Made by a program: the position numbers and the translations under genes. DNA of 64,000 nucleotides from Geobacter sp. UBA698 (GTDB lineage Bacteria > Desulfobacterota > Desulfuromonadia > Geobacterales > Pseudopelobacteraceae), in NCBI GenBank assembly GCA_002298925.1, contig DBMM01000028.1:3713-67712 (forward strand). The letters run 5' to 3'. The notes below the pieces were generated by a model that made no database searches, was not told where the DNA came from, and worked only from the letters and a program-made list of their open reading frames with translations. Shown in pieces: positions 1 to 18,828 of the stretch. Each line of letters starts with the position of its first letter. Within the stretch, counting starts at the first letter, position 1.

Positions 1-896
1 TGATCCATCGTCTCCCCTGGACGGCACCCCTCTTTCTGGTCGGATGTGTCTCCATCTCGGCCTTGCCACCTTTCAATGGCTTTGTTTCGGAGTGGCTGAC
101 ATTTCAGGCCTTTCTACTCTCGCCGGCACTGCCTCATCCGATCCTGAAGCTGCTGATCCCGCTCGGGGCTGCGCTGCTGGCACTGACCGGGGCGCTGGCC
201 GCTGCCTGTTTCGTCAAGGTATTCGGGGTGGTTTTTCTGGGACAGTGGCGCGGCCACCAGAAGCCGGACCACATCCATGAAGTCGTTTGGTCCATGCGAA
301 GCGGGATGCTGTTGGCAGCGATCACCTGCCTGCTGCTGGGGATTTTTCCGACCTGGGTCATCAGTTGGCTGGACACGATCCCCGAGCAGCTGTGCGGCGG
401 CCGTATTGCCGAATCCGCCGGCAGGTACGGCTGGATGTGGCTGACGCCGATCGCCCACCAGCGCGCCTCCTATTCCGGTCCGGTTGTATTTATCGGGATA
501 CTGACGGTGGTTGCCGTGACCTGGCTGCTGCTGCACGTGCGCGCAACCCGTGTCAGCAGAGTGCCGCTCTGGGATTGCGGCTTTGCGAAGCTGACCCCCC
601 GCATGCAGTACACGGCCAGTTCCTTCTCCATGCCGATCCGGCGGGTACTCGGTTTCCTGTTTGCGGTGCGCGAACAGGTTGAGATCGTGCCGCACACCAA
701 TCACCCAGCCATGCCGGGGAGCCTCCAGTACCGTTTGCGGGTCCGGGACCGCTTCTGGAACTGGCTCTACGCCCCGCAGGGGGATGCAGCCTACTGGTTG
801 GCGCGTCAGGCCGGCAAGCTGCAGCATGGGCATATCCAGGTCTACCTGCTCTACTCATTCATAACCCTGATCGTGCTGCTGGTGTTTCTAGGATGA
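1..896 (+). CDS. HyfB/HycC/NuoL-like membrane subunit of hydrogenase-related (Ehr-type) complex 1, C-terminal part (5' end lies outside the window)
   Basis: Frame 3 is open from the window edge. The translation IHRLPWTAPLFLVGCVSISALPPFNGFVSEWL aligns with the C-terminal thirds of the full-length paralogs at 7648-9654 and 11201-13246, including the shared WDCGF/WGCGY...MQY(T/S)ASSF tail. Its stop overlaps the next start (ATGA at 893-896). Confidence 0.85.
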   Translation, partial: IHRLPWTAPLFLVGCVSISALPPFNGFVSEWLTFQAFLLSPALPHPILKLLIPLGAALLALTGALAAACFVKVFGVVFLGQWRGHQKPDHIHEVVWSMRSGMLLAAITCLLLGIFPTWVISWLDTIPEQLCGGRIAESAGRYGWMWLTPIAHQRASYSGPVVFIGILTVVAVTWLLLHVRATRVSRVPLWDCGFAKLTPRMQYTASSFSMPIRRVLGFLFAVREQVEIVPHTNHPAMPGSLQYRLRVRDRFWNWLYAPQGDAAYWLARQAGKLQHGHIQVYLLYSFITLIVLLVFLG

Positions 897-1837
897 ACCT
901 CCACCCACTGGCCATAGAGCTGCTCCAATTCGTCCTGCTGCTTGCCCTGGCACCGGCCTTTGCCGGCTGGGTCAAGGTGCTCAAATGCCGCATGCAGGGC
1001 CGTAGTGCAGCTGGAATCATGCAACCATACCGCGATATCCGGCGACTGTTCGGCAAGGATGTCGTGCTAGCCGAAAACGCCTCGTGGCTCTTCCGTTTCA
1101 CCCCCTATCTGACCTTCGGAGTGACAACCATTGTGGCCGGGATTATCCCACTGATCTCAGTTGATCTCCCGCTGTCGGCCACCGCCGACGTGATTGCGTT
1201 GGTGATGCTGTTCGGGATCGTCCGTTTTTTTACCGCACTGGCAGGGATGGATATCGGCACCGCCTTTGGCGGCATGGGCTCCAGCCGCGAGATGACAATC
1301 GCCTCACTGGCTGAACCGGCCATGCTGATGGCGATCTTTACGGTATCGCTGGCCAGCAACTCCACTTCGCTGACTCAGATGGTGACGGTCATGGCGCACG
1401 CCGAGTTTGTGATCCGCCCGTCACTAGCCTTTGCCCTGGCGGCCTTTATCATGATCGCCCTAGCCGAGACCGGCCGTGTCCCGGTTGACAACCCGGCTAC
1501 CCACCTGGAGCTGACCATGATCCATGAGGCCATGATCCTGGAATATTCCGGGCGCCACCTGGCCCTGATCGAATGGGCCGGAATGATGAAACTGACCCTC
1601 TTATTCGCCCTCGGAATCGCCTCCTTCTGTCCCTGGGGAATTTCGGCTGGTGGTGATATCGGCTCGTTGGCGCTGGCGCTCGGTATACTGGCAGTCAAGC
1701 TCATGGTCGGAGCGCTGATCATGGTCTTGATCGAGACCGGTCTGGCCAAGATGCGTATTTTTCGCCTCCCCGAATATCTGGGGAGCGCCTTCCTGTTGGC
1801 GACACTCGGTATGATCGCCTTCTTTATCCTGGAGTAA
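893..1837 (+). CDS. HyfC/HycD/NuoH-like integral membrane subunit (cluster 1)
   Basis: 314-aa polytopic protein. The motif PVDNPATHLELTMIHEAMILEYSG is typical of the NuoH/HycD family and is shared with the paralog at 13291-14199. Translationally coupled to the upstream gene. Confidence 0.85.
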   Translation: MNLHPLAIELLQFVLLLALAPAFAGWVKVLKCRMQGRSAAGIMQPYRDIRRLFGKDVVLAENASWLFRFTPYLTFGVTTIVAGIIPLISVDLPLSATADVIALVMLFGIVRFFTALAGMDIGTAFGGMGSSREMTIASLAEPAMLMAIFTVSLASNSTSLTQMVTVMAHAEFVIRPSLAFALAAFIMIALAETGRVPVDNPATHLELTMIHEAMILEYSGRHLALIEWAGMMKLTLLFALGIASFCPWGISAGGDIGSLALALGILAVKLMVGALIMVLIETGLAKMRIFRLPEYLGSAFLLATLGMIAFFILE

Positions 1838-1841
1838 CGTC

Positions 1842-2507
1842 ATGGCCCACACCCTTGCAGCCCAGATAAACAGCTTGCTGGCAGCCCTGATTCTGCTGTC
1901 CGCCTTTGCCTTGCTGGCCCAGCGCAAGATCATGGGGTTGGTCCATATTTTTGCCTGGCAGGGTTTCTTTCTGGCGCTCAGTACCGCCGTGATCGGTTTC
2001 GCCAGCGGTGAACACCACCTCTACATCTCCTCGCTCCTGACGCTCGGCATGAAGGTTTTTCTGCTCCCCTACATCCTCTACAGCCTGGTACACAAGCTGA
2101 AGATACACCGCGATATCGAGGCGGTCGTCAATATTCCCACCACCATGCTGCTCGGGATAGTGCTGGTGGTCTTCAGCTACCATTTGACCGCACCGATCCG
2201 GGAACTCTCCAACCTGATGACCCGCTCTACCCTGGCGGTAGCGCTGGCCACAGTCATGCTGGGGCTGTTGATGATGGTCACCCGCCGCCATGCCGTGACG
2301 CAGATTCTGGGGTTTCTGGCCATGGAGAACGGCCTGTTCTTTGCCGCCACCAGCGCCACCTACGGCATGCCGATGGTGGTGGAGTTGGGGGTGGCGCTCG
2401 ACCTGTTGATTGCGGCCTTTATCTTCGGCATCTTCTTTTTCCATATCAACACCACCTTTGACAGCCTGGATGTGGATCAGATGGCAAAGCTCAAGGAAAC
2501 GGATTAG
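1842..2507 (+). CDS. HyfE-like (NuoK-related) membrane subunit (cluster 1)
   Basis: 221-aa hydrophobic protein. The segment LGFLAMENGLFF..PMVVELGVALDLL matches the paralog at 14204-14845 and the hydrogenase-4 component E family. 4-nt gap to the upstream gene. Confidence 0.8.
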   Translation: MAHTLAAQINSLLAALILLSAFALLAQRKIMGLVHIFAWQGFFLALSTAVIGFASGEHHLYISSLLTLGMKVFLLPYILYSLVHKLKIHRDIEAVVNIPTTMLLGIVLVVFSYHLTAPIRELSNLMTRSTLAVALATVMLGLLMMVTRRHAVTQILGFLAMENGLFFAATSATYGMPMVVELGVALDLLIAAFIFGIFFFHINTTFDSLDVDQMAKLKETD

Positions 2508-2510
2508 GCC

Positions 2511-3959
2511 ATGATTCTTCTCTCTCTCCTCGGCATATCGATCCTGGTGGCGCTGATCATGGCCTTTATCGGCGACTGGCGTTTTGCACCGGAGGTAAAT
2601 ATAGGCGGTTCCCTGCTGACCTTTATCGTGTCGCTGGTCCTGGCGCTGCAGGTCTACCACGAGGGGGGGAGCATTTCCGGCTCTACCTACTTCTTTGTCG
2701 ATTACCTGAATATCTCCCTGGTCGTACTGACCACCCTGGTATCCACCACGACCGCCGTCTTCAGCCGCCGCTACATGCGGGTCGAACGAGAACATGGCCG
2801 GGTCGGCCACTGGCGGATGCGTTTTTATCACGCCATGTTTCAGCTCTTCATCTTTGCCATGCTGATCGCCCTGGTGACCAATAATTTCGGCGTGCTCTGG
2901 ATCTCGATGGAGCTGGCGACGCTGGCGACCGTCCTGTTGGTGTCACTCTACCGGACCCCGACCGCAATCGAGGCGGCCTGGAAATATTTCATCCTCTGCG
3001 GTGTCGGGATTGCCCAGGCGCTCTTCGGCACGGTACTGCTCTACTTTGCCGCCGAGAGGGTACTGGGGGCCGGCGGCAATGCCCTGCTCTGGACAAACCT
3101 GAGCCGGGTCTGCGCCCAGCTGGATCCGACCGTCATGCGGCTGGCCTTTGTCTTTCTGATGGTCGGCTACGGCACCAAGGCCGGTCTGGTGCCGCTGCAC
3201 AACTGGCTTCCGGATGCGCACAGCGAGGGGCCGACCCCGGTTTCGGCCGTGCTCTCCGGTCTGCTGCTGAATATCGCCCTGTACGCCCTGATTCGCTGCA
3301 AGGCGCTGGTGGATGGTTCCCTCGGGAGCGGGTTTGCCGGCAACATCATGATGGGGTTCGGCCTCTTTTCCCTGCTGACGGCGGCCTTTTCCATGCTGCG
3401 CCAGAAGGATATCAAGCGCCTCTTTGCCTACTCCTCCATCGAACATATGGGAATCGCCACCTTTGCCTTTGGTCTGGGCGGGCCGATCGCCACCTTTGGA
3501 GGGGTGCTCCATATGATCGTCCATAGTCTGGCCAAATCTGCCACCTTTTTCAGCGTCGGCCATGCCGCCCAGATGCACGGGACCCAGGAAATGGCCCATA
3601 TCCGGGGCCTGATTCGGGGGAATCCGGCGGTCGGGTGGGGAATGTTTCTGGGGGTAATGGCGCTGGCCGGCATGCCCCCCTTCGGGATCTTTACCAGCGA
3701 ATTCCTGATCCTGACCGCCACCATGAAGGATGCGCCGTACCTCGCCCCGTTGCTGCTGCTGGGGCTGACGGTGGCTTTTGCCGCCCTGTTCCGCAAGGTA
3801 CAGCCGATGGTGGCGGGGTTGATCCCGTCAGGACAAAAACAGCTCTCAGCCGCCAATATCCCGGTGTTCCTGCATCTGGCGCTGGTGCTGATTCTCGGCA
3901 TTTACCTCCCCGGATTCCTGGCGAACTGGTTTCATCTGGCGGTGGAGATATTGAAGTGA
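2511..3959 (+). CDS. HyfF/NuoN/NuoM-like antiporter-type membrane subunit (cluster 1)
   Basis: 482 aa. Carries the PF00361-type core GTKAGLVPLHNWLPDAHSEGPTPVSAVLSG and KRLFAYSSIEHMG. Paralog at 14850-16286. Confidence 0.85.
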   Translation: MILLSLLGISILVALIMAFIGDWRFAPEVNIGGSLLTFIVSLVLALQVYHEGGSISGSTYFFVDYLNISLVVLTTLVSTTTAVFSRRYMRVEREHGRVGHWRMRFYHAMFQLFIFAMLIALVTNNFGVLWISMELATLATVLLVSLYRTPTAIEAAWKYFILCGVGIAQALFGTVLLYFAAERVLGAGGNALLWTNLSRVCAQLDPTVMRLAFVFLMVGYGTKAGLVPLHNWLPDAHSEGPTPVSAVLSGLLLNIALYALIRCKALVDGSLGSGFAGNIMMGFGLFSLLTAAFSMLRQKDIKRLFAYSSIEHMGIATFAFGLGGPIATFGGVLHMIVHSLAKSATFFSVGHAAQMHGTQEMAHIRGLIRGNPAVGWGMFLGVMALAGMPPFGIFTSEFLILTATMKDAPYLAPLLLLGLTVAFAALFRKVQPMVAGLIPSGQKQLSAANIPVFLHLALVLILGIYLPGFLANWFHLAVEILK

Positions 3960-3968
3960 ACGTAAAGG

Positions 3969-5555
3969 ATGGCCACTGTGAACTCGCTCCGCAATACAAT
4001 CATGACTCACTTCGGCACGACTGCCTCTCTCTGTCTGGGCACCTGTCCCTCCAGCGTCCCGCAGATACTGGTTCCGCGCGAGCAGTTTGAGGATGTCGGC
4101 TGGGTGATGAAGAAGGCCAGCGCACGGCTGGCGGCCGAATGGGGTGTCGATGAAACCCTGCTGGGTAGGCAGTATGCAGTGCTGGCCTGCTTTGCGCAGG
4201 ATGCCGAGTACCTGCTGGTGCGGTGCGATGTCCCGCTTGATGACCCGGCCTTTCCCAGCCTGTCAAAAAAACACCCCCCGGCCTTTCGCTTCGAGCGCCA
4301 GATTTTAAGCCTGCTGGGGTTGACTCCGACCGGTCATGTTCATTCCGACCTGCGCCCCTGGATCAAGCACGAGGATTGGCCGCCTGATGCCTGGCCGCTC
4401 AGAAAGTCCTTTGCCGCCGGTCAACAGATGTCCCGCGTGGAGGGAGAGTACAAGTGGGTCCGGGCTGAAGGGGAGGGGGTCTATGAGATTCCGGTCGGAC
4501 CGGTGCATGCCGGGATCATTGAGCCGGGGCATTTCCGTTTTCAGGCCATGGGCGAGGATATTCTCAATCTGGAGGAACGCTTGGGCTACACCCATAAAGG
4601 GATCGAGAAGCGCTTTGAACAGTTGTCCTGGAAAGACGGGGCACGGCTGGCCGGAAGGGTGTCGGGCGACTCGACCGTTGCTCACGCCCTGACCTACTGC
4701 CGGGCGGTTGAGGCGCTGGTCGAGGGGAATGTGCCTCCCAGGGCGGCCTGGCTGCGGGCGATCATGCTGGAGCGGGAACGGATTGCCAACCATCTTGGAG
4801 ATATCGGTGCCATTGCCAACGATGCCGCCTTTGCCTTCTTTTTTTACCAGTTCATGCTGCTGAAAGAGCATGTTTTACGCGGCAACAAGCGGCTGTTCGG
4901 TCACCGTTACCTGATGGACCGGATCGTGCCGGGCGGGGTTGCCGTTGATCTATCGGCTGATGGTCCCTCCTTGATCGAGGAGGAAATAATCAGCCTGCTG
5001 GCGGAGTTCGAACGGATTGTAAAGATCTACGACCTGAACGCGTCACTGGATGATCGTCTGCGCGGTACCGGGATCCTGCCGGCGGAAACGGCCCGCGAAC
5101 TCGGCACGGTCGGCTTCGTTGCCCGGGCCAGCGGCCAGCCGCTGGACTGCCGCCTGCAAGCGCCCTTTAGCCCCTATGACCGGTTTCCTCCCCGGATGAC
5201 CGTGCTCAACTCGTGCGACGTCCACGCCCGCGCCTGGGTGCGGATCGAAGAGATCCGCGACTCAATCCGCCTGATCCGCGAACTTCTGGCGACACTGCCG
5301 ACCGGAGAAACGTCGGCACCACTGAAGGATGTCCCGCCGGACCAAAGCGCGTTTGCCGTCGTGGAGGGGTGGCGTGGGGAGATCGTCTATTGGCTGCACT
5401 CCGGTCCAGAAGGGGAGATCAACCGCTGCGCGATCCGTGATCCGTCCAGCGTCAACTGGCTGGCGCTCGAACAGGCGATCCACGGCAACATCGTTCCCGA
5501 TTTTCCGCTCTGCAACAAGAGTTTTAACCAGTCCTATTCGGGACATGATTTGTAG
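3969..5555 (+). CDS. NuoC-NuoD fusion / HycE-HyfG-like 'large subunit' lacking the Ni-Fe ligand cysteines (Ehr-type, cluster 1)
   Basis: 528 aa with VGPVHAGIIEPGHFRF and LGYTHKGIEKRF. The position of the RxCGxCxxxH motif reads RVSGDSTVAH (nt 4656-4685). The C-terminus reads DFPLCNKSF instead of DPCxxC (nt 5499-5525). Confidence 0.85.
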   Translation: MATVNSLRNTIMTHFGTTASLCLGTCPSSVPQILVPREQFEDVGWVMKKASARLAAEWGVDETLLGRQYAVLACFAQDAEYLLVRCDVPLDDPAFPSLSKKHPPAFRFERQILSLLGLTPTGHVHSDLRPWIKHEDWPPDAWPLRKSFAAGQQMSRVEGEYKWVRAEGEGVYEIPVGPVHAGIIEPGHFRFQAMGEDILNLEERLGYTHKGIEKRFEQLSWKDGARLAGRVSGDSTVAHALTYCRAVEALVEGNVPPRAAWLRAIMLERERIANHLGDIGAIANDAAFAFFFYQFMLLKEHVLRGNKRLFGHRYLMDRIVPGGVAVDLSADGPSLIEEEIISLLAEFERIVKIYDLNASLDDRLRGTGILPAETARELGTVGFVARASGQPLDCRLQAPFSPYDRFPPRMTVLNSCDVHARAWVRIEEIRDSIRLIRELLATLPTGETSAPLKDVPPDQSAFAVVEGWRGEIVYWLHSGPEGEINRCAIRDPSSVNWLALEQAIHGNIVPDFPLCNKSFNQSYSGHDL

Positions 5556-5678
5556 GGGTGATTGCGAATACGGCATACGGGCAGATGATCAAAAGCAGCG
5601 TCCACAAGCGTCAGAGAGGCTGTTATCAACTTCTGACAGCGCCTACCTTCTTATCCGTGTGCCTATCTCTCAAGATGG

Positions 5679-5706
5679 TTGACAATATAATTATATGTCA
5701 TACAAT
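5679..5706 (+). promoter_or_regulatory. Candidate sigma-70 promoter for the inserted ATPase gene
   Basis: TTGACA (5679-5684), a 16-nt spacer, then TACAAT (5701-5706), in a locally AT-rich stretch. Followed by the inverted repeat GTTACCAT (5708-5715) / ATGGTAAC (5733-5740). Confidence 0.45.
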
Positions 5707-5751
5707 GGTTACCATCATGTAGTAATCATAGTATGGTAACAAAGATTGGGC

Positions 5752-6900
5752 ATGGCAAACCCCTTTTACATAAAGCAGTTACCGCTTGACGCTCCCTTTT
5801 GCAACCGACAGAAAGAGATTGCTGAACTGTGCCGATTGGCTGAATCAAAGAATGATGTTGTCATTCATTCACCCAGGCGTTTCGGTAAAACCTCTCTAGT
5901 CCGCAGAGTGCAGAAGGAACTGGCAGATCGGGGAGCGCTCACAATTTATGCCGACTTTTTCGGAGTTGGTTCAATAGATGATGTTGCGGCCCGAATGGCG
6001 GAAGCGGTCTTTCGTGTGACCCATAAGAAAGAGCCTCTGTGGAAAAGCGCGCTCAAATTTCTGACGACATTTCGTCCGGTGCTCCGTCCTGATGCTGATG
6101 GTGGAGTAGAATTGACCGTTGAGTCCTCATCTGCGGGCAGGACCGGCTTGCCGCTCCTCAATGAAACCATGGAGTCACTGCGGCAATTTATCGACAACAC
6201 AGGCGCATTGGTTCATATCGCGCTGGATGAATTCCAGGAAATAGTGGTTCTGCCGGATGCAGTGAAAATTGAAGCCGCTTTGCGGACTCATATTCAACAA
6301 TATAAGGCATCGCATTTTTTTGTCGGTAGTCGCCGCAGGCTTTTGCTCGGGATGTTTAACGAGCGTCAGAGGCCGTTTTTCCAAAGCGCATTCGATTATC
6401 CACTTAAGTCGCTGCCTCGGGAAGAGTTGGCGGAATTCCTGTCAAAGCAGTTTACCGATAGCGGCATTATCTGCTCAAAAGAGATGGCAATCCATCTGGC
6501 GGAACTCGTCGATTGCTATCCCTACTATGCCCAGAAATTTGCCCATCATGTCTATGACCTGGCCGGTTCCGAAGTTACCTGGGCTGAAATAAAAATGGCG
6601 ATGAGAAGTCTGATCTTTTCCGAAGGGACAGCGTTCGAATACGCCATTCAAGGTTTGGCGCCACAGCAGCGTCTATTGCTTCGTGCCATTGCCAGGGAAC
6701 CGGCAAAACAGATCATGGCGACAAAATTCATGCGCACGCACAATCTCGGATCGGTCAACGCCGTACGGAATTCGCTCAAACAGCTGGAACTGCTGGACTA
6801 CATTGAAAAAGACTCTGATAACGTCTGGCATGTTATTGACCCGGTTTTTACATGGTGGTTGACGGGGAGAGTCAGCGAGGAAGCGATGGACGGTATGTGA
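5752..6900 (+). CDS. AAA-type ATP-binding protein ('archaeal ATPase'/ATPase_2-like with a C-terminal winged-helix-like region)
   Basis: Walker A SPRRFGKTSL and Walker B-like HIALDEFQE. Overall look of orphan PF01637-type ATPases. Visibly lower GC than the flanking genes. TTG at 5746 is an alternative start. Confidence 0.7.
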   Translation: MANPFYIKQLPLDAPFCNRQKEIAELCRLAESKNDVVIHSPRRFGKTSLVRRVQKELADRGALTIYADFFGVGSIDDVAARMAEAVFRVTHKKEPLWKSALKFLTTFRPVLRPDADGGVELTVESSSAGRTGLPLLNETMESLRQFIDNTGALVHIALDEFQEIVVLPDAVKIEAALRTHIQQYKASHFFVGSRRRLLLGMFNERQRPFFQSAFDYPLKSLPREELAEFLSKQFTDSGIICSKEMAIHLAELVDCYPYYAQKFAHHVYDLAGSEVTWAEIKMAMRSLIFSEGTAFEYAIQGLAPQQRLLLRAIAREPAKQIMATKFMRTHNLGSVNAVRNSLKQLELLDYIEKDSDNVWHVIDPVFTWWLTGRVSEEAMDGM

Positions 6901-7096
6901 CGGAAAAAGGATTACTGCGACAAGGTGGAAAAGCGGATAAAAGTCACACCCCCTCCCCGCTGCTGGAGCTTGAGGAAAACGACGCGAAGGGGTTGGAGAA
7001 GGCGGGGGAGTGAGGCTTGATGATGGGAAAACAGGGGAGTGTCCCGCTTTATTCCCTCTTTATTCCCCATGGATATGTTAGGAGGGAATCTGACCT

Positions 7097-7615
7097 ATGC
7101 TGAGAATACTGCACCAGATATTTCGAACCGGGGTGGTGACCGAGCCGTTGCCGGAACAGGTGGAAGCGGAGCTGGCCCACGTGGGCGGCCGGCTCGAAGA
7201 GGCTATCAGGCGGCGCTTCCACCGCAGCCTCGTGATCCGCGAGGTGGATGCCGGCTCGTGCAACGGCTGCGAGCTGGAGATCATCGCCATGAACAACCCG
7301 ATCTACAACTGTGAACGTTATGGCATCCAGTTTACGGCGTCGCCCCGCTTTGCCGACTTGCTGCTCGTCACCGGGCCGGTATCGATCAATATGGAGATTG
7401 CCCTCAAACGCACCTACGACGCCACTCCCACCCCCAAACTGGTCGTAGCGGTTGGTGATTGTGGCTGCCATGGCGGGATCTTCGGCGAAAGCTATGCCTC
7501 ACTCGGGAGTGTAAGTAACGTCATACCGGTTGATGCCAGCATTCCCGGCTGTCCGCCGACACCGTTCGACCTGCTGAATGGCATCCTCCGACTGATTGAC
7601 GGGCATCAGCCTTGA
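7097..7615 (+). CDS. NuoB/HycG/HyfI-like 'small subunit' with [4Fe-4S] ligands (cluster 1)
   Basis: 172 aa. Cys motifs GSCNGCELE, GDCGCHGG and PGCPPTP are typical of the NuoB/hydrogenase small-subunit N2-type cluster. RBS AGGAGGG lies about 10 nt upstream. Confidence 0.85.
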   Translation: MLRILHQIFRTGVVTEPLPEQVEAELAHVGGRLEEAIRRRFHRSLVIREVDAGSCNGCELEIIAMNNPIYNCERYGIQFTASPRFADLLLVTGPVSINMEIALKRTYDATPTPKLVVAVGDCGCHGGIFGESYASLGSVSNVIPVDASIPGCPPTPFDLLNGILRLIDGHQP

Positions 7616-7647
7616 TAGCAGCATCAGCGGGAATTGGTAGCGGTTTA

Positions 7648-10995: not shown

Positions 10996-11010
10996 GACGG
11001 CACTCTCCCT

Positions 11011-11020
11011 TGCATATGCA
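11011..11020. promoter_or_regulatory. Perfect 10-bp palindrome TGCATATGCA, candidate TA operator
   Basis: Located 16 nt upstream of the antitoxin start codon, on the promoter side. Confidence 0.3.
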
Positions 11021-11200
11021 TGTGTCGCGAAATATTAGTAAGTAAGAATTGTTTTCTGCGACATTTGGCAAAAAAAAATTCGTTAATGCACTTTTCCTGC
11101 GTAGCAGGGTTGGATGTCTTCATAATTTTATTGACGTATGAGTATTTATACCATATTTTTATTGTAAGTGTTATAATTTTTTACAACGTATAGAGATTTT

Positions 11201-13246
11201 ATGCCGACCTGCAATCATATCTTACCTCGATATGAGCGAAAGGGTAGGTGTGAGGCATTCGTGTTTTTTTCCGTTGATCCGACAATATGCCTTCTGGCCG
11301 CAGCAACACTCATGGCGTTCTCAGGAGTACCAGGTCTTGTGATGAACCGTCCTGTCTGGGGGCAGCGGATTGCCGCTGTTTTCGTTGTTGCGGCATCCAT
11401 TGTCGGTGAGTTCGCCGTCATTTCTCTCCTTGGCGGCTCCCGGGGAGCTACCTTCCAGATTGACTGGCCACTGCCGTTCGGGCAGGCTCTTATGTCCGTC
11501 GATCTCCTCTCAACGATCTTCCTCCTGCCTCTCTTCCTGGTTTGCGGATGTGTCTCGGTATATTCAATCGCCTACTGGCCGGCCAGGGAACAGACCAGCG
11601 CCGGAAAACTTACGCTGTTTCTCGGGTTCTTTGCCGCAGCGATGGTCATGGTGGTCTTGGCCCGCCACGGCGTATTGTTTCTCATAGCCTGGGAGGTCAT
11701 GGCCCTGTCGGCCTATTTCCTGCTGACGGCGGAGCAGCAGAGTTCCGAGGTGCAGCGAGTCGGGACGATCTATCTCATTGCCACCCACACCGGCACCATG
11801 GCGCTGTTTGCAATGTTTTCGCTACTGCGCGGTGCAATCGGCACGTTCCAGTTTCCCGCATCACATTCTCTATCCCAGGCGGTGCCGGTTGCCTCGGTCA
11901 TTATCATAACTGCCCTGATCGGCTTTGGCGGCAAGGCCGGTCTTATGCCTTTGCACTTCTGGCTCCCCGGGGCCCATGCCAACGCCCCCAGCCATGTTTC
12001 AGCCATGATGTCCGGTTTGATGCTGAAGATGGGGGTCTATGGCATTCTGCGGACCATGTCGTTTTTTGACGCTCTGCCTGTCTGGCTGGGGTGGCTTATC
12101 CTCCTTTTGGGCACCTGGTCGGCGATAAACGGCATTGCCCTGGCAGCCGGCCAGCGTGACCTGAAACGACTCCTGGCCTGCAGCAGTATCGAGAATGTCG
12201 GTATTATCTTTATCGGCATCGGGCTGGCCGTTGTCGGCCTGCAGCTGCACGCTCCCTACCTCATCGTATGTGGTCTCTTTGGAGCCTTTATCCATATCAT
12301 CAATCATGGTCTGTTCAAATCGCTCCTCTTTCTGGGGAGCGGGGTGCTGATCCATGCTGCCGGAACCCGTGAAATAGACCGCATGGGCGGCCTGGCCCGG
12401 CGCATGCCGATCACGTCGCCGCTCTTCCTGATCGGCTCCCTTGCCATCTGCGGGCTGCCGCCGCTCAATGGTTTTGTGGGCGAACTGTTTCTCTACGTCG
12501 GGGCCATTACCGATGGCATCATCGCACCTTTGCCGCTGGCGGCCCTAGTGGCACCAGTGTTGGCGTTGGTCGGCGGATTGGCTGTCATTACCTTCGTCAA
12601 AATCTATGGGATCATCTTTCTTGGCGCTCCACGCTCTGTTGCAGCCGCTCACGGCCATGAAGCAACCAGGGCGATGACCGCTCCGATGGTTCTGCTGGCG
12701 CTCGGCTGTCTGGTTGCAGGCCTGGCGCCTGTGCTGCTGGTGCGATTGGTTACACCGGCGGTCGCTTTTTATGGTAACCTGGCCGCACCTGAAATTGCCC
12801 TGGTTACCGATCAGGTACCTCTTGTGCCACTCACGTTTGCCAATTGCCTGCTCATCATTCTTGTTCTGGTGATCGGAGCTGCATACCTGTTGCGGCTGCG
12901 CAGGTTGCCCCGCTCCCTGGGGGCCACCTGGGGATGCGGCTATCCTGAACCAACAGCCAGAATGCAATATACCGGCACATCGTTCAGTGAGATGGTGGTG
13001 AATCTGTTAGGGGCAATCGTTGCCCCCAACCGCCGGAAGCCCATACTTGTTACAGCCATTCCTCCTGCTGACGCACGTTTTCACTACACGGTGACTGAAA
13101 CAGTGCTTGACCGGATTCTGACACCGCTCTTTCAAGGGGTCGGCCTGGCCTTTTCCTATCTCAGAAGGGTGCAGCATGGCCAGCTTCATATCTATGTGCT
13201 GTATATCTTTGCCACGCTGTGCGTTCTGATGGCCTGGACGCATTGA
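11201..13246 (+). CDS. HyfB/HycC/NuoL-like membrane subunit (cluster 2)
   Basis: GGKAGLMPLHFWLPGAHANAPSHVSAMMSG, KRLLACSSIENVG and a WGCGYPEPTARMQYTGTSF tail. The in-frame GTG at 11261, preceded by GAGG, aligns better with the paralog N-terminus and may be the true start. Confidence 0.85.
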   Translation: MPTCNHILPRYERKGRCEAFVFFSVDPTICLLAAATLMAFSGVPGLVMNRPVWGQRIAAVFVVAASIVGEFAVISLLGGSRGATFQIDWPLPFGQALMSVDLLSTIFLLPLFLVCGCVSVYSIAYWPAREQTSAGKLTLFLGFFAAAMVMVVLARHGVLFLIAWEVMALSAYFLLTAEQQSSEVQRVGTIYLIATHTGTMALFAMFSLLRGAIGTFQFPASHSLSQAVPVASVIIITALIGFGGKAGLMPLHFWLPGAHANAPSHVSAMMSGLMLKMGVYGILRTMSFFDALPVWLGWLILLLGTWSAINGIALAAGQRDLKRLLACSSIENVGIIFIGIGLAVVGLQLHAPYLIVCGLFGAFIHIINHGLFKSLLFLGSGVLIHAAGTREIDRMGGLARRMPITSPLFLIGSLAICGLPPLNGFVGELFLYVGAITDGIIAPLPLAALVAPVLALVGGLAVITFVKIYGIIFLGAPRSVAAAHGHEATRAMTAPMVLLALGCLVAGLAPVLLVRLVTPAVAFYGNLAAPEIALVTDQVPLVPLTFANCLLIILVLVIGAAYLLRLRRLPRSLGATWGCGYPEPTARMQYTGTSFSEMVVNLLGAIVAPNRRKPILVTAIPPADARFHYTVTETVLDRILTPLFQGVGLAFSYLRRVQHGQLHIYVLYIFATLCVLMAWTH

Positions 13247-13290
13247 AGTATTGTTATGATCGTTTTCATCATCTGTGAGGATGACCTTTT

Positions 13291-14199
13291 ATGACTGACA
13301 TCATCATCCATTGTGCAGTGGCGCTGCTCTTCCCACCCCTTCTGCTGGGGGTAATCGGCAAGACCAAGGCGGCATTTGCCGGACGGGTCGGGGCGCCATA
13401 TTTCCAACCCTATTACGACCTGATCAAACTCTTCCGCAAAGGGTCGGTCTTCAGCGAGACCACCACCTGGGTCTTTCGAGCCGGTCCCGTGGTGACGCTG
13501 TCGGCAACGCTTATCGCCTGCCTGCTGATACCGCTGGGGCGCCATGCAGCGCCCATTTCTTTCAGCGGTGATCTGATTCTGTTTGCGTACCTGTTCGGGT
13601 TGTCACGCTTCTTCACTACCATCGCCGCCCTTGATACCGGCTCAAGCTTTGAAGGTATGGGCGCGGCCCGCGAGGTGACTTTTTCGTGCCTTGCTGAACC
13701 GACTCTATTTTTTACCCTGATCACGCTGGCGCGGATGAGTAAGTCCATCACCCTTTCGACCATTCTTACCCATCCCACACCCGCGACCTGGTTTGCTGCC
13801 GGAGCCAGCATGTTGCTGCTGGTAGGGGCACTCTTCATCATCCTCTTGGCGGAAAACTGCCGCATCCCCTTTGATGACCCCAACACACACCTGGAATTGA
13901 CCATGATCCACGAGGTAATGGTTCTGGATCACAGCGGACCCGCCTTTGGGATCATTCTCTATGGTGCAGCCTTGAAACTCTTTGTTCTCGGGGCGGTTTT
14001 CGTCAATGTCGCCCTGCCCATCGCCACTGGAAACGCTCTGGCGGACTGGGCAATCTTCATTGTCGCCATACTTGCCCTGGCGGTGACAATCGGCATTGTT
14101 GAGTCGGTCATGGCCAGATTGAGATTGGTGCGTATCCCGCAACTCCTGGTCGGGGCCACCATCCTGTCAGCCTTTGCCATGATGCTGGTTTTGAGGTAA
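13291..14199 (+). CDS. HyfC/HycD/NuoH-like integral membrane subunit (cluster 2)
   Basis: 302 aa. PFDDPNTHLELTMIHEVMVLDHSG parallels the paralog at 893-1837. Confidence 0.85.
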   Translation: MTDIIIHCAVALLFPPLLLGVIGKTKAAFAGRVGAPYFQPYYDLIKLFRKGSVFSETTTWVFRAGPVVTLSATLIACLLIPLGRHAAPISFSGDLILFAYLFGLSRFFTTIAALDTGSSFEGMGAAREVTFSCLAEPTLFFTLITLARMSKSITLSTILTHPTPATWFAAGASMLLLVGALFIILLAENCRIPFDDPNTHLELTMIHEVMVLDHSGPAFGIILYGAALKLFVLGAVFVNVALPIATGNALADWAIFIVAILALAVTIGIVESVMARLRLVRIPQLLVGATILSAFAMMLVLR

Positions 14200-14203
14200 C
14201 CCT

Positions 14204-14845
14204 ATGAGTCTATTAGCTGATCAACTGCTGGTACTGGTGATGCTGATCAATCTGGTCATGCTCGGGACGAGCCGACTGATCTTTTCCATCCGTGCCGTCG
14301 CAGTCCAAGGGGTCATACTCGGTATTTTGCCCGGATTGATTCACCCTTTTTCCTTTCATCTGGCCGGCATAACTGCCGGTATCATCCTGGCCAAAGGGAT
14401 TGTCATCCCGTATTTTATCAGTAATGCCGTCCGCAAGGCCCAGATCAGACGCGAAGTGGAGCCATTCATCGGCTATGTGCCGACCCTGCTTCTCGGCGCC
14501 GTATTCACAGCACTTTCATTCGCTTTTGCCGAAAAACTGCCGCTCGCGCCCGAACACAAGGACCTTCTGTTCGTTCCGGCCTCCATCGCTACCCTGTTGA
14601 CCGGCTTTTTGCTCCTCACAACACGGCGCAAGGCTATTTCCCAGGTTATTGGTTATCTGGTGATGGAAAACGGGATTTTCGTGTTCGGCCTGTTGTTGAC
14701 CGAGGCCATGCCGGTCATGGTGGAGGCTGGTGCACTGCTCGATCTTCTGGTGGGGATATTTGTCATGGGAATTGTCATCAACCATATCAGCCGGGAATTT
14801 TCATCCATCGATACATCCCGCCTGCAAACCCTCAAGGAGGAGTAG
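14204..14845 (+). CDS. HyfE-like (NuoK-related) membrane subunit (cluster 2)
   Basis: 213 aa. IGYLVMENGIFVFG..MPVMVEAGALLDLL parallels 1842-2507. Confidence 0.8.
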   Translation: MSLLADQLLVLVMLINLVMLGTSRLIFSIRAVAVQGVILGILPGLIHPFSFHLAGITAGIILAKGIVIPYFISNAVRKAQIRREVEPFIGYVPTLLLGAVFTALSFAFAEKLPLAPEHKDLLFVPASIATLLTGFLLLTTRRKAISQVIGYLVMENGIFVFGLLLTEAMPVMVEAGALLDLLVGIFVMGIVINHISREFSSIDTSRLQTLKEE

Positions 14846-14849
14846 CTGC

Positions 14850-16286
14850 ATGTTATATGCCCTTGTACTGCTGCCCCTGCTCGGAGCGTTATGCGCCTGG
14901 ATCGTACCGGACAACCGCTTGCGTCCCCTTGTTCTGCCGCTGATCGCAACAATCCATATCTGTCTGGCGGCCTTCCTGGTGGGAAATGCGCCGCCGCCAT
15001 CCCCCGGAGGCTGGATCTGGCTCGACCCGCTGGGGAAGGTCGTGCTTCTGTGCATCAGTCTTCTGTTCGCAGTCTGCGCCTTCTATGCGGTCGGCTATCT
15101 GTCCTACCGTCAGGAACGTTCCAACCGGGTTCTCTGCATGGGTCTGCTGGTCTGCCTGTCGGCCATGGGGATGGTGACCATGACCCAGCATCTGGGACTT
15201 CTCTGGGTCGCTCTGGAAACGACCACCGTCTCGATGGCACCGCTCATCTACTTCAATCACAACGCCCGTTCCATCGAAGCGACCTGGAAGTACCTCCTGC
15301 TCTGCTCCGTTGGGATCGGCCTGGCTTTGCTCGGGTTGCTGTTTCTGGCCTATTCAACCTACGTAGCGCATCATGATGCCACCCTGCTGCTCGGGCCGCT
15401 CATGTCCATAGCCCGTGAACTGAATCCGGCGTGGCTGCATGCGGCTGCGATTTTCCTCCTGGTTGGCTACGGAACCAAGATGGGACTGGCTCCATTGCAT
15501 GCCTGGAAACCTGATGCCTACGGCGAAGCGCCGGGACTGGTAGGCGCGTTGCTTGCCGGTGGATTGGTCAACTGCGCCTTTCTGGCGATCCTGCGGGTGT
15601 ACCAGATCTGTCTGGCATCCGGTACCGAGATCCGTTTTTTTCAACAGGCCCTGCTCGGTATGGGTCTGGTTTCCATGGCCTTTGCTGCCGTTTTCATGGC
15701 CCGCCAGGCCGACTTCAAAAGGATGCTGGCATATTCGAGCGTTGAACATGTGGGGATTCTCGCTATCGGTCTTGGACTCGGCAAAGGAGCGCTGTACGGG
15801 GCGCTCTTTCACCTGCTCAATAACGGACTGACCAAGGGGGTACTCTTCCTTTCATCCGGCAACATTCACCGCTCATATTCAAATAAGACGACCGTCGTGG
15901 TCAAGGGGGCCCTGACGCGTCTCCCCTGGTCGGGAGGGCTGTTTCTGGCCGGCTTCATAGCCATCACCGGATCACCTCCATTCTCGCCGTTCATCAGCGA
16001 GTATACCATCGTCAGCAGCGCCTTTATCGACGGGCGTTTTCTGGTGGGGAGTTTGTTTCTGCTCTTTCTGGTGGTTGTCTTCATCGGCATGGCCCTTACG
16101 GTACTGCCGATGGTCATGGGCGCCCCGCCGGCGGAAGTTGAAGCGAGCGACTACGAGGACCGTCTGTTGACGGTGGGGCCGCCGCTCTTCATGATGATGG
16201 TAATCCTGGTGCTGGGAGTTTGGCCGCCGGAATTCCTGGTTGCGTTACTCAAGGACGGCGCCGCCATGCTGGGGGTGCAACCGTGA
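14850..16286 (+). CDS. HyfF/NuoN/NuoM-like antiporter-type membrane subunit (cluster 2)
   Basis: ATG at 14850 follows RBS AAGGAGG (14834-14840). The N-terminus MLYALVLLPLLGA is membrane-like. Core motifs are GTKMGLAPLHAWKPDAYGEAPGLVGALLAG and KRMLAYSSVEHVG. The longer ORF starting at 14730 overlaps the upstream gene and was rejected. Confidence 0.85.
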   Translation: MLYALVLLPLLGALCAWIVPDNRLRPLVLPLIATIHICLAAFLVGNAPPPSPGGWIWLDPLGKVVLLCISLLFAVCAFYAVGYLSYRQERSNRVLCMGLLVCLSAMGMVTMTQHLGLLWVALETTTVSMAPLIYFNHNARSIEATWKYLLLCSVGIGLALLGLLFLAYSTYVAHHDATLLLGPLMSIARELNPAWLHAAAIFLLVGYGTKMGLAPLHAWKPDAYGEAPGLVGALLAGGLVNCAFLAILRVYQICLASGTEIRFFQQALLGMGLVSMAFAAVFMARQADFKRMLAYSSVEHVGILAIGLGLGKGALYGALFHLLNNGLTKGVLFLSSGNIHRSYSNKTTVVVKGALTRLPWSGGLFLAGFIAITGSPPFSPFISEYTIVSSAFIDGRFLVGSLFLLFLVVVFIGMALTVLPMVMGAPPAEVEASDYEDRLLTVGPPLFMMMVILVLGVWPPEFLVALLKDGAAMLGVQP

Positions 16287-17803
16287 ATGGCTCCCTGCGC
16301 ACCGTATACAACGGTTCCTCCGTTCCTATGGCGGACATACCAGCAGTCGGTTCCAGCCAGTTTTTACAGAACATTCTCGACACCGTTGACCAGGGCTGGC
16401 GCATTGTTTCTTACTTCGGGATTCCAGGCCCCGCAGGCGTTTCGCTGGTCTGCCTGCTTGCCGATAAAGGCGAGGGACAACTTGCCGTGACCCGTGCGGA
16501 TGTAACGGCTGACCACATCCCCTCGATCTCTTCCCTCTGCCCTCAGGCACAACTTTTTGAGCGCGAGATTGCCGAACAGTGCGGCCTGATCTTTGATGAC
16601 CATCCCTGGTTCAAGCCGGTGCGTTTCCACCATCCATTCGTCCCCGGACGCGATGCTTGGAACCGGTCTTCGGACGAGCCTATCCGCGCCGGGGTCATGA
16701 ACTACTTTCAGGTGGCCGGCGATGAGGTGCATGAAGTTGCCGTCGGTCCGGTACACGCCGGGATTATCGAACCGGGACATTTCCGTTTCCAGTGTCACGG
16801 TGAAGAGGTCTTTCATCTGGAAATTTCACTCGGGTATCAGCACCGGGGGATCGAAGCAGCACTATTCGGCGGGCCTCACCCTCGCACGCTGCAGGTGATG
16901 GAAACCGCCGCCGGAGATACCACCATTGGTCATAGTCAGGCCTACTGCATGGTCATGGAAACTTTGGCCGGGATCAAGGTGCCGCCGCGGGCAGAGGTCC
17001 TACGCGGCATTGCCCTTGAGCTGGAACGGCTGGCAAATCATACCGGCGACCTGGGGGCAATTGCAGGCGATGTCGGTTATCTTCCCACTGCGTCCTTCTG
17101 TGGCCGCATCAGGGGGGATTTCCTCAATATGACCGCTGTCCTCTGCGGCAGCCGCTTTGGTCGCGGACTCCTCACCCCCGGCGGTACGATCTTCGATCTC
17201 ACGACCGCCCAGTGTGAAGACCTGCTCAAACACCTGGCAGAGGCGCGAAGTGATCTGACTGATGCCGTTGAACTTCTCTGGAGCTCACCTTCGGTCATGG
17301 GACGTCTGGAGGAAACGGGTGCGCTGACACATGAGCAGGGGCTTGCACTCGGATTGGTAGGTCCAGCTGCCCGTGCCTGCGGAATCAAGCGGGATGTGCG
17401 CAATGATTATCCGTTCGGAATCTATCGCATGACCCATTTGCCGGTTGCCACTGCATTCCACGGAGACGTCTGCGCACGAACCATGATCAGATGGCAGGAA
17501 GCCCAGAAATCCATGGATTTCATCGAGGAACAGCTACGGCAGATCCCCGCTGGAGGACATCGTGTCACTGCATTACCCGGCAAAGGTCTGCGCCTGGCCG
17601 TAGCCCTGACAGAGGGGTGGCGCGGCGAGATATGTCACGTGGCGGTTACCGATGAGGCGGGGCAATTTTCCCGCTACAAGATTGTCGATCCCTCGTTTCA
17701 TAACTGGCCGGGACTCGCCATGGCGCTCCGGGGGCAGCAAATATCCGATTTTCCGCTCTGCAACAAGAGCTTCAACCTATCCTATTGCGGGTTTGATTTA
17801 TAG
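16283..17803 (+). CDS. NuoC-NuoD fusion / HycE-like 'large subunit' lacking the Ni-Fe ligand cysteines (Ehr-type, cluster 2)
   Basis: GTG start at 16283 overlaps the upstream stop (GTGA). Carries VGPVHAGIIEPGHFRF and LGYQHRGIEAAL. The L1 position reads ETAAGDTTIGH (16901-16933). The C-terminus reads DFPLCNKSFNLSYCGFDL (from 17747). Confidence 0.85.
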   Translation: MNGSLRTVYNGSSVPMADIPAVGSSQFLQNILDTVDQGWRIVSYFGIPGPAGVSLVCLLADKGEGQLAVTRADVTADHIPSISSLCPQAQLFEREIAEQCGLIFDDHPWFKPVRFHHPFVPGRDAWNRSSDEPIRAGVMNYFQVAGDEVHEVAVGPVHAGIIEPGHFRFQCHGEEVFHLEISLGYQHRGIEAALFGGPHPRTLQVMETAAGDTTIGHSQAYCMVMETLAGIKVPPRAEVLRGIALELERLANHTGDLGAIAGDVGYLPTASFCGRIRGDFLNMTAVLCGSRFGRGLLTPGGTIFDLTTAQCEDLLKHLAEARSDLTDAVELLWSSPSVMGRLEETGALTHEQGLALGLVGPAARACGIKRDVRNDYPFGIYRMTHLPVATAFHGDVCARTMIRWQEAQKSMDFIEEQLRQIPAGGHRVTALPGKGLRLAVALTEGWRGEICHVAVTDEAGQFSRYKIVDPSFHNWPGLAMALRGQQISDFPLCNKSFNLSYCGFDL

Positions 17804-17858
17804 TGTCACACCGATCAGGTTTTCAGACAGTACAAGGGTGTGCCGAAGGAGTTGCATC

Positions 17859-18596
17859 ATGATCAGAGCAATCGTTTCCCGCATCAAACAGGGGCATCGT
17901 ACCATGCCCTATCCCGCAGCACCATTGCAGATGCCGGAACGGTTTCGAGGCTACCCTGTTGCAGCATCGCTTGCAGATTCGGCCGATCGATCACCTGAAT
18001 GTCCCTATGGCGCCTTTTCCGCTGCGGAAGGTGGATGCCTTGATATGGGGAAATGCCTCTTCTGCGCCGAGTGTCCGGCAGGAAACATAGAATTCACCAC
18101 GGATCATCGACTTGCAGCCACAAAAAGAGAACATCTTCTGGTAACGCCGGGAGCTCCACGGCAGTTTGCACAGGCGCTTTCTAACGATCTGCTACGCATA
18201 TTGGGTCGCTCGCTCAAATTCCGTGAGGTCAGTGCAGGCGGTTGTAATGCTTGTGAGGCAGATACCAACGTGCTGTCAACCATAGGCTGGGATCTGGGAC
18301 GGTTTGGCATTCAATTTGTGGCGTCGCCACGCCACGCTGATGGGCTCTGGGTAACCGGTCCAGTCACCAATAACATGACCAAGGCTCTGCTCACTACATA
18401 TGATGCGATTCCTGAACCGAAGATCGTTGTTGCCTGTGGCGCCTGTGCCATCAACGGCGGACCGTACATTGATTCGCCCCAAGTTTGCAACGGCGCAGAT
18501 GGTCTCATTCCGGTAGATCTCTACATCCCCGGCTGTCCGCCACACCCCGGGACCATACTCGACGGTCTTTTACGAATTATTGATAAAATCAGATGA
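17859..18596 (+). CDS. NuoB/HycG-like 'small subunit' with an N-terminal single-cluster ferredoxin-like extension (cluster 2)
   Basis: ATG at 17859. The N-terminal part has ECPYGAF...GKCLFCAECPAG (CxxCxxCP plus a distal CP). The C-terminal part has GGCNACEAD, ACGACAINGG and PGCPPHP (NuoB-type). Confidence 0.8.
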   Translation: MIRAIVSRIKQGHRTMPYPAAPLQMPERFRGYPVAASLADSADRSPECPYGAFSAAEGGCLDMGKCLFCAECPAGNIEFTTDHRLAATKREHLLVTPGAPRQFAQALSNDLLRILGRSLKFREVSAGGCNACEADTNVLSTIGWDLGRFGIQFVASPRHADGLWVTGPVTNNMTKALLTTYDAIPEPKIVVACGACAINGGPYIDSPQVCNGADGLIPVDLYIPGCPPHPGTILDGLLRIIDKIR

Positions 18597-18825: not shown

Positions 18826-18828
18826 ACA

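Follow-up and report, generated by a model that had tools for sequence, protein, structure and literature searches.

The first 18,596 nucleotides (nt) of a 64,000-nt stretch of DNA from Geobacter sp. UBA698 (GenBank assembly GCA_002298925.1, contig DBMM01000028.1, positions 3,713 to 67,712 of the forward strand; the whole stretch is referred to as the window) carry two gene clusters of the Ehr type and, between them, a third antiporter-like gene on the other strand. Ehr complexes are relatives of the group-4 [NiFe]-hydrogenases, lack the CxxC motifs and are of unknown function (PMC4378227, PMC6349859, PMC10284858, PMC10432482), as was still stated in 2023 (PMC10284858, PMC10432482). In Geobacter sulfurreducens, Ehr is encoded by GSU0739-0745, which include the NuoL-like EhrA-1, and its role has never been investigated according to the authors; the complex was detected as protein, all subunits being more abundant on formate than under hydrogen-containing conditions (PMC7894505). 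The genes of the window were assigned by Pfam and NCBIfam family scans, and the features of the locus are collected in Table 1. A preliminary description had listed two complete modules with identical gene order and tight or overlapping junctions, together with the third HyfB/NuoL-like gene. The order HyfB-, HyfC-, HyfE-, HyfF-like, large and small subunit was indeed recovered in both clusters (E-values of 1e-30 to 1e-224 for the module genes), and so was the third gene. Two modules are present, but module 1 is not complete, since the window edge truncates its A gene and an interruption of 1,541 nt lies between its large and small subunit genes. Likewise, the ATGA (893) and GTGA (16283) overlaps are real and four gaps measure 3-9 nt, but gaps of 44 nt (13246-13291) and 55 nt (17803-17859) are not tight.

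Judged by their sequences, both modules are close to certain to encode Ehr complexes. The large subunits are homologous to the large subunits of group-4 [NiFe]-hydrogenases and to NuoD (PF00346, PF00329), both CxxC Ni-Fe motifs are absent, and genes for PF01058, PF00146 and PF00361 proteins are clustered in each module. The predicted product of each is a core resembling complex I and formate hydrogenlyase (FHL), made up of a NuoH-like, a HyfE-like and two antiporter-like subunits together with large and small subunits that resemble NuoCD/HycE and NuoB/HycG, respectively. The modules are further members of a known but uncharacterised family. Corresponding subunits share 31-49% identity (large subunits ~36%), identifying the two modules as ancient paralogues and not as a recent duplication.

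Group-4 [NiFe]-hydrogenases provide four cysteines in the motifs L1 (RxCGxCxxxH) and L2 (DPCxxCxxH/R) (PMC4378227). Among solved structures, the module-1 large subunit matched HycE best (7z0s_E, E 1e-58), and it also matched 6u8y_L (E 7e-21) and 6cfw_L (E 6e-33). At the N-terminal motif, however, RVCGICGFAH of HycE corresponds to RVSGDSTVAH in module 1 and TAAGDTTIGH in module 2, and at the C-terminal motif DPCYSC corresponds to NQSYSG and NLSYCG, respectively. All four Ni-Fe ligand positions are thus non-cysteine in both large subunits, and this holds across 13 homologues of the module-1 type and 47 of the module-2 type, in agreement with the initial Ehr assignment. The residues found instead are conserved in their own right. 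TAAGDTTIGH and DFPLCNKSFNLSYCGFDL are conserved in the 47 module-2-type proteins, and the motifs [S/A]-G-D-[S/T]-T-x-[A/G]-H and, at the C-terminus, DFPLCNKSFNxSY[S/C]GxDL show little or no variation across all 13 + 47 homologues, being common to both types despite the overall identity of ~36%. The positions replacing the Ni-Fe ligands have evidently not decayed. The hydrogenase-type EPGHFR motif is retained in the large subunit. Both large subunits terminate two residues past the C-terminal motif and hence have no HycI-type cleavable tail. Upon alignment of the module-1 large subunit to 2fug_4, Gly and Ile were found at the positions of Tyr87 and His38 of Thermus thermophilus Nqo4, which we take to be the quinone ligands of complex I. 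In the membrane arm, the proton-relay residues are intact: the Glu of transmembrane helix (TM) 5 and the Lys residues of TM7 and TM12 are invariant in all five antiporter-like subunits, and the three A-type subunits additionally retain the TM8 Lys.

The preliminary description had stated that the small subunits keep their [4Fe-4S] cysteines, and the four NuoB/HycG-type residues are indeed 100% conserved in 10 module-1-type and 43 module-2-type homologues. In module 1 these residues (Cys55, 58, 122 and 152) make up one [4Fe-4S] ligand set, and a ferredoxin domain is absent. The module-2 small subunit has eight fully conserved cysteines (Cys48, 66, 69, 72, 129, 132, 196 and 226) and ~105 additional, HycF-like residues at its N-terminus. 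A profile of this N-domain in module-2-type proteins matched HycF (7z0s_F, E 9e-21, residues 1-109) and NuoI (~1e-15). Thus, a separate HycF/NuoI-type gene is missing as had been reported, but a HycF-derived Fe-S domain is present in fused form. Of the 43 homologues, 22 have a domain with all eight cysteines of a 2x[4Fe-4S] ferredoxin. The clade of the window and three further loci (L026, L069, L079) lack precisely four of these, namely CI-CIII of motif 1 and CVIII, which closes motif 2; the CP cysteine of motif 1 is 100% conserved, as are the three that open motif 2. In a standard 2x[4Fe-4S] ferredoxin, CI-CIII and CVIII ligate a single cluster. By this pattern the loss would have removed one whole cluster, the equivalent of the distal N6a, and the cluster adjoining the NuoB-type one is predicted to be retained in module 2. 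Accordingly, module 2 has two predicted ligand sets, N6b-like (NuoI/HycF) and N2-like, and module 1 has the N2-like set only. The view that the redox nature of the complexes cannot be read from context was therefore too pessimistic, given this HycF-derived cluster and the eight-cysteine domain of relatives. Small subunits of the module-1 type lack the HycF-derived domain; a weak match of the module-1 N-terminus to it (hhalign, E 0.054 over 22 residues) tentatively suggests a HycF-like stub of ~20 residues. Across the family, three, two or one [4Fe-4S] ligand sets occur, and the locus described here combines a two-set with a one-set form. This graded loss of Fe-S ligands argues for a functional, partner-specific shortening of the electron-input wire, but it would also allow module 1 to have given up its redox function.

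To place the extra A gene in context, relatives of this subunit were collected from one genome per species, and 80 loci selected through the A subunit (numbered L001 onwards) were annotated with 10-kb flanks. Neither the retrieved loci nor the top 120 matches, which are filled by closer metagenomic relatives, include Ehr of G. sulfurreducens, the archetype. The extra A protein has 47.5% identity with module-2 A, 37% with module-1 A and 59% with the product of the first gene in the L001 seven-gene operon, and it also matches the MrpA and MrpD structures of Mrp antiporters. Of 84 homologues, 83-84 retain its residues Glu150, Lys230, Lys261, Lys358 and Glu413. The start of the gene is overlapped by 4 nt by the stop codon of a gene for a PtsN-like EIIA protein. 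Like PtsN (EIIA-Ntr), this protein has the EIIA_2 fold (PF00359) and a phospho-acceptor His in the motif GxGIAIPH, which is conserved in 77 homologues; the best solved match is Escherichia coli PtsN (1a6j, E 2e-13), whose GNGIAIPH aligns with GDGIAIPH. Unlike PtsN, it carries an N-terminally fused HTH_17 domain, which suggests DNA binding, and its gene is translationally coupled to that of a membrane antiporter-like subunit. Regulation through the phosphoenolpyruvate (PEP)-dependent nitrogen phosphotransferase system may be envisaged. The EIIA gene is preceded, on the same strand, by a PemK gene and an antitoxin-like gene. Antitoxin, PemK, EIIA and A genes probably form one operon that is transcribed divergently to module 2.

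In at least 70 of the 80 loci, the HTH-EIIA gene lies immediately upstream of the A gene in the same orientation. About 30 loci, belonging to Geobacteraceae, Desulfuromonadaceae, Planctomycetota, Myxococcota and Spirochaetota, continue with a co-directional module-2-type operon, and another 10 (e.g. L001) with one of the module-1 type. The seven-gene operon of L001 is close to the genes analysed here: six of its genes are 83-97% identical, its first gene 59% and its EIIA gene 49%. The window-like arrangement, in which the module-2 operon diverges from PemK-EIIA-A, was found in about 23 loci. Where module 1 lies downstream of the A gene in loci of this divergent type, it is co-directional in L014, L016 and L017 and convergent in L004, L009, L011, L019, L020 and the window; the window-type layout is found in public genomes such as those of Geobacter argillaceus (L006), L004 and L019. 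Five or six loci with full flanks have no Ehr module within 10 kb. The association was also sampled in the reverse direction, by choosing contigs via three EIIA homologues. All five contigs recovered show an EIIA gene overlapping a Proton_antipo_M gene by 4 nt; four of these antiporter-like genes are full-length (661-668 aa), the fifth runs off the end of L085, and on each of the four longer contigs a divergent module-2-type operon is present as well. Pairing from the A side and from the EIIA side thus identifies EIIA followed by A as the invariant unit, and in relatives this pair usually heads an Ehr operon. The middle gene, previously called an orphan antiporter subunit, is by this comparison the EhrA-1-type seventh subunit and no stray. 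Its orphan look probably results from a local rearrangement, the module-1 operon being inverted relative to relatives such as L017. In L026, a metagenome-assembled genome of Desulfobacteraceae, two module-2-type operons flank EIIA-A with a second EIIA-like gene between them; the small-subunit N-domain has the four-cysteine form in one operon and the eight-cysteine form in the other.

Further genes accompany the pair in relatives. A ~360-aa protein encoded directly after the A gene in 16-17 of the 80 loci matched CsoSCA_cat (34.8 bits, cut-off 21.5) and CsoSCA structures (E 4e-6), and it retains the beta-carbonic-anhydrase motifs CxDxR (CMDGR, 16/16) and HxxC (HRGC, 14/16). In four loci (L051, L055, L059, L067) EIIA, A and this carbonic anhydrase (CA)-like gene are followed by 3.7-10 kb of sequence free of Ehr genes. 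In addition, a ~480-aa GAPDH-like protein with a ~130-aa N-terminal extension stays associated through rearrangements, its gene following the small subunit gene in at least 13 loci and A-DUF3124 in L086 and L087. Searches of the window by tblastn gave no homologue of the CA-like or the GAPDH-like protein. The PemK/antitoxin-like pair occupies the same position in ~25 related loci (69-94% identity), and other relatives have PemK in opposite orientation between the A gene and module 2. A DUF815 AAA-type ATPase gene was seen near Ehr modules in 17 relatives (L001 15036-15866), together with EamA, NUDIX and DUF2786 genes; this recurrence may be mere shared synteny of related genomes.

The part of module 1 beyond the window could be read from L003, a metagenome contig that is 100% identical to positions 1-15555 and reaches 2,251 nt further upstream. 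The window holds the C-terminal 297 of the 679 aa of module-1 A, and the full gene (L003:1108-3147) starts 1,144 nt before position 1. The protein is 90% identical to the second antiporter gene product of the L001 operon and is evidently the counterpart of the second EhrA in seven-gene operons. Upstream of it, across a 265-nt intergenic gap, lies a divergent PF02594 gene on the minus strand; in a comparison of flank synteny, this gene was found elsewhere only in L058. The preliminary description had allowed for electron-input or hyp genes co-transcribed just upstream; to 2.25 kb upstream there are none. Between the large and small subunit genes of module 1, relatives have a spacer of 11-37 nt in five cases (11-12 nt in L001 and L035) and of 160 nt in L017. 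In the window this spacer is occupied by a lineage-specific insertion with an AAA ATPase gene, preceded by its own sigma70-like promoter (5679-5706, TTGACA-16-TACAAT, 11 of 12 consensus positions). Other cargo is found at the same junction in L004 (1,497 nt, 12507-14000, with a 163-aa membrane open reading frame (ORF)) and in L019 (2,739 nt, 12554-15292, with a RelE/ParE-like pair and two ORFs). The inserts of the window and L019 agree in ~25 nt on the left and in their right flank as well. No convincing terminal repeats were found at the borders of the AAA insertion, nor was an integrase seen. The large/small junction of module 1 is thus a site of variable cargo. L019 carries a second insert (18322-20521) between its D and C genes.

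Evolutionary constraint was assessed by computing the ratio of nonsynonymous to synonymous substitution rates (dN/dS) against four relatives. For all 14 genes, including the middle A, EIIA and PemK genes, values of 0.03-0.20 were obtained. A silent pseudo-operon, which the preliminary description had named as a possibility, is therefore very unlikely.

Table 1. Features of the Ehr locus (window coordinates unless a related locus is named).
Feature	Position	Strand	Evidence and remarks
Module 1 A, HyfB/NuoL-like	1..896	+	NF005086 'hydrogenase 4 subunit B' E 6e-92, profile 378-666
Module 1 B, HyfC/NuoH-like	893..1837	+	PF00146 E 1.4e-33; ATGA overlap with A
Module 1 C, HyfE-like, NuoK-like C-terminus	1842..2507	+	NF008556 'hydrogenase 4 membrane subunit' E 8e-29
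Module 1 D, HyfF/NuoN-like antiporter-like	2511..3959	+	NF005045 'hydrogenase 4 subunit F' E 1.5e-224, above curated cut-off
Module 1 large, EhrL-type, NuoC-NuoD/HycE-like	3969..5555	+	PF00346, PF00329
Lineage-specific insertion between module-1 large and small	5559..7092	+	1,541-nt large-small spacing
AAA ATPase in insertion	5746..6900	+	PF01637
Module 1 small, EhrS-type, NuoB/HycG-like	7097..7615	+	PF01058 E 2.5e-30
Extra A, EhrA-1-like, HyfB/HycC-like, 668 aa	7648..9654	-	NF005086 E 1e-172; HycC 7z0s_C E 1e-75
HTH_17 + PtsN-like EIIA, 228 aa	9651..10337	-	PF12728, PF00359 (E 1.6e-23)
PemK/MazF-type toxin	10401..10766	-	PF02452 E 3e-20
Antitoxin-like gene, 78 aa	10759..10995	-	gene calls in L003
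Divergent intergenic region, antitoxin-PemK-EIIA-A versus module 2	10996..11200		sequence read directly
Module 2 A, HyfB/NuoL-like	11201..13246	+	PF00361 E 6e-47; start uncertain, L003 gene caller 11342
Module 2 B, HyfC/NuoH-like	13291..14199	+	PF00146 E 2e-34
Module 2 C, HyfE-like	14204..14845	+	PF00420 E 4e-5, below curated cut-off; 33% identical to module-1 C
Module 2 D, HyfF-like	14850..16286	+	PF00361 E 6e-39; ATG start 14850
Module 2 large, EhrL-type	16283..17803	+	PF00346; GTG start overlaps preceding stop
Module 2 small, HycF-derived N-domain + NuoB/HycG-like domain, 245 aa	17859..18596	+	NF009053 (HycF) E 7e-7, PF01058
CsoSCA-like gene in relatives (examples)	L046 11984-13102; L050 11975-13126; L061 11998-13092		13 more loci
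GAPDH-like gene in relatives (examples)	L045 13194-14639; L086 13448-14890; L087 11051-12493		

The surroundings of the modules were searched across all 64 kb. A Pfam scan covered the candidate genes of at least ~100 aa, setting aside ORFs below 90 aa and a few regarded as spurious; among its matches there was no homologue of HypA-F, HycI, formate dehydrogenase, CO dehydrogenase or NuoE/F/G, confirming that maturation and electron-input genes are absent. An Rfam scan of the whole window returned nothing but one tRNA. In a PADLOC search, the AAA ATPase, PemK, the antitoxin and an 824-aa protein had no defence-system match, the sole hit being the HTH domain of the EIIA protein. The 824-aa ORF (21392-23866, plus strand) has a lipoprotein-like N-terminus (LAGCSS) and no Pfam match either. 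The divergent intergenic region holds one sigma70-like match on the plus strand (11131-11159). A gene for a 767-aa sigma54 activator lies 5.4 kb downstream of module 2 (23974-26277, plus strand), its sensor part combining an [FeFe]-hydrogenase-like domain (Fe_hyd_lg_C, E 4e-44), 4Fe-4S motifs and a 'Putative Fe-S cluster' domain. Control of the ehr operons by this activator was considered and is not supported: sigma54 promoter matches (TGGCAC-N5-TTGCW, at most two mismatches) numbered 39 against 39.6 expected, and none lies upstream of the ehr operons. The sole nickel-related gene seen in the window encodes a homologue of LarA-type lactate racemase (36731-37993, minus strand; Lar_N, E 3e-68), which we take to be a nickel-pincer enzyme.

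Compared with known systems, the locus resembles Ehr of G. sulfurreducens in coming from the same or a close taxon, in combining a membrane arm with a large and a small subunit, and in a large subunit free of CxxC motifs. The arrangement of an extra A gene followed by six genes, as in L001 and L034, recalls the seven genes GSU0739-0745, a likeness that is one of names and gene count (PMC7894505). In contrast to G. sulfurreducens, two paralogous modules stand side by side, the single extra A gene is detached from them and convergent with module 1, and module 1 is interrupted by the AAA-ATPase insertion. FHL-1 of E. coli (HycB-G and FdhF, 7Z0S) provides the best structure matches, HycE for the large subunit, HycC for the extra A protein and HycF for the N-domain of the module-2 small subunit, and the gene order follows hyfB, C, E, F, G, I of Hyf (FHL-2). 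Unlike FHL-1 and Hyf, the modules have no Ni-Fe site, no separate HycF/HyfH, no HycB/HyfA, no FdhF and no tail for HycI to cleave; in module 2 the HycF-like part, with one cluster, forms a fusion with the small subunit, and in module 1 it is missing. Of the hallmarks of group-4 [NiFe]-hydrogenases, the L1/L2 cysteines, a separate 2x[4Fe-4S] protein (HycF/HyfH/EchF), Hyp and HycI (in 64 kb) and the C-terminal tail are all lacking. Of those of complex I (NDH-1), the quinone Tyr/His positions and, by the Pfam scan of the window, NuoE/F/G are missing. Like MBS/Mbx (6U8Y) and MBH (6CFW) of Pyrococcus furiosus, Ehr belongs with complex-I-like respiratory complexes derived from group-4 hydrogenases, and with MBS it shares the want of a working Ni-Fe site. 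The P. furiosus complexes have a separate NuoI-like subunit, a Mrp-type module of many small subunits, and ferredoxin together with an acceptor that is known (polysulfide or H+); for the present modules no such feature is established. Among Mrp-related families, Pfam detected PF00361-type subunits and the NuoK-like HyfE only, with no match to MrpB, C, E, F or G.

The reading we favor, with a probability of roughly 55%, is that the two modules encode Fe-S-wired, ion-translocating Ehr complexes under PtsN-type control that perform no H2 chemistry. Such complexes would not need Hyp/HycI maturation. Electrons would be exchanged with a soluble low-potential carrier, most plausibly ferredoxin, docked directly on the small subunit, and a reaction or conformational change in what used to be the Ni-Fe pocket would be coupled to the movement of H+ or Na+. 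Ions would pass through the two antiporter-like subunits, or through three when the extra A protein is attached as a distal third one. Either ions would be pumped, or the membrane potential would drive ferredoxin reduction. The PtsN-like protein would link expression or activity of Ehr to carbon and nitrogen status through PEP-dependent phosphorylation. Several observations weigh against this reading. No electron donor, acceptor or substrate was identified, and clustering of the unassigned ORFs of the 80 loci (families present in at least four loci) yielded no conserved redox partner or maturation gene. With Gly and Ile at the quinone-ligand positions, a quinone acceptor is not supported. Module 1 may have lost through-electron transfer, as it is left with one cluster and lacks the ferredoxin-like domain, and the insertion of the AAA gene may uncouple expression of its small subunit. 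Finally, there is one extra A gene alongside two modules.

The modules might instead have ceased to be oxidoreductases and be Mrp-like secondary cation/proton transporters or ion-homeostasis devices, with the Fe-S clusters serving a structural role or as a redox sensor or gate and the PtsN-like protein regulating flux. E. coli PtsN regulates K+ systems, and the conservation of a PtsN-like partner would suit this explanation, as would the match of the extra A protein to MrpA/MrpD, the stepwise loss of ligand sets from three to two to one, and the want of a redox partner gene both in the window and as a conserved feature of the 80 neighbourhoods. Furthermore, in place of redox-metal ligands, the former Ni-Fe pocket now presents Asp, Ser/Thr, Asn and Lys, and in L088 a P-type cation ATPase gene adjoins the EIIA-A unit. 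However, the N2-type cysteines are 100% conserved in both types and the N6b-type set wherever the domain exists, and the ligands of the distal cluster vanish as a coherent set, not by random decay. Moreover, the EPGHFR motif and the peripheral arm of large and small subunit are under strong constraint, and homologues of MrpB, C, E, F and G were not detected. We regard a purely Mrp-like role as rather unlikely.

Doubtful, and to a greater degree, is a role of the extra A and PtsN-like proteins in the energy coupling of vectorial CO2 hydration or carbon assimilation, in the manner of DAB or the cyanobacterial NDH-1MS (CupA), with Ehr as the engine and the CA encoded elsewhere or lost. Both systems couple a NuoL-like subunit that conducts protons with a beta-CA-like protein; in DAB these partners are the NuoL-like DabB and DabA, and among homologues CsoSCA is structurally closest to DabA (bioRxiv 10.64898/2026.05.01.722082). 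The CsoSCA-like protein directly after A in 16-17 of 80 loci, with its CA motifs kept, follows this precedent, and the four EIIA-A-CA loci and the persistent GAPDH-like gene point in the same direction. On the other hand, the window has neither a CA-like nor a GAPDH-like homologue, the clade to which it belongs (A identity of at least 63%) has no CA gene, and the ~360-aa protein of relatives is of the CsoSCA_cat type and not DabA (PF10070), which is absent. Unlike DabB2, which has been reported to lack ion-pair motifs, the extra A protein keeps its Glu/Lys ion-pair residues. Adjacency of genes is, moreover, no proof of a physical complex. The likeness to DAB is thus a lead only and not a finding of the window. 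A similarly low probability attaches to the idea that Ehr and the PtsN-like/EhrA-1 unit form a device for carbon assimilation that is controlled by carbon/nitrogen status and coupled to the membrane potential, by ferredoxin reduction or by vectorial CO2 hydration for reductive carboxylations. If true, this would be a third independent lineage of complex-I-like complexes serving inorganic carbon or low-potential electrons, beside NDH-1MS and DAB; the stepwise Fe-S loss would then reflect a changed electron partner, and the CsoSCA-like and GAPDH-like neighbours would be metabolic clients.

That the clusters are decaying, non-functional remnants is highly improbable. Foreign cargo interrupts module 1 in the window, L004 and L019, and the operon order is rearranged, which could be taken for erosion by insertion and inversion. 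However, all ORFs are intact, the dN/dS values are low, the active-site and Fe-S motifs are invariant, and Ehr subunits of G. sulfurreducens have been seen by proteomics (PMC7894505). Genuine group-4 [NiFe]-hydrogenases of the Hyf or Ech type, evolving or oxidising H2, are contradicted by the non-cysteine ligand positions throughout both sets of homologues, the want of a cleavable C-terminal extension and the lack of hyp/hycI in 64 kb, although the subunit order, the nearest sequence relatives (Hyf/Hyc) and the EPGHFR motif are those of such enzymes.

In the searchable literature, which is incomplete and does not cover the original Ehr descriptions (Coppi et al. 2004), we found no description of the PtsN-like/EhrA-1 unit, of the HycF-HycG fusion with cluster-specific loss, of the conserved motifs replacing the Ni-Fe ligands or of the variable-cargo large/small junction. 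Ehr was named ~20 years ago and is widespread, occurring in Geobacter, Nitrospira, ammonia-oxidising archaea, Sulfobacillus and candidate phyla, and its place in evolution is on the path that links group-4 hydrogenases with complex I. The locus does not solve the problem of its function. It does offer a compact test bed, in which paralogous modules with two and one Fe-S ligand sets may share a single extra A subunit. The PtsN-like regulator, the HycF-derived docking domain, the polar motifs and the CA- and GAPDH-like neighbours provide handles for mutation and pull-down in tractable Geobacter.

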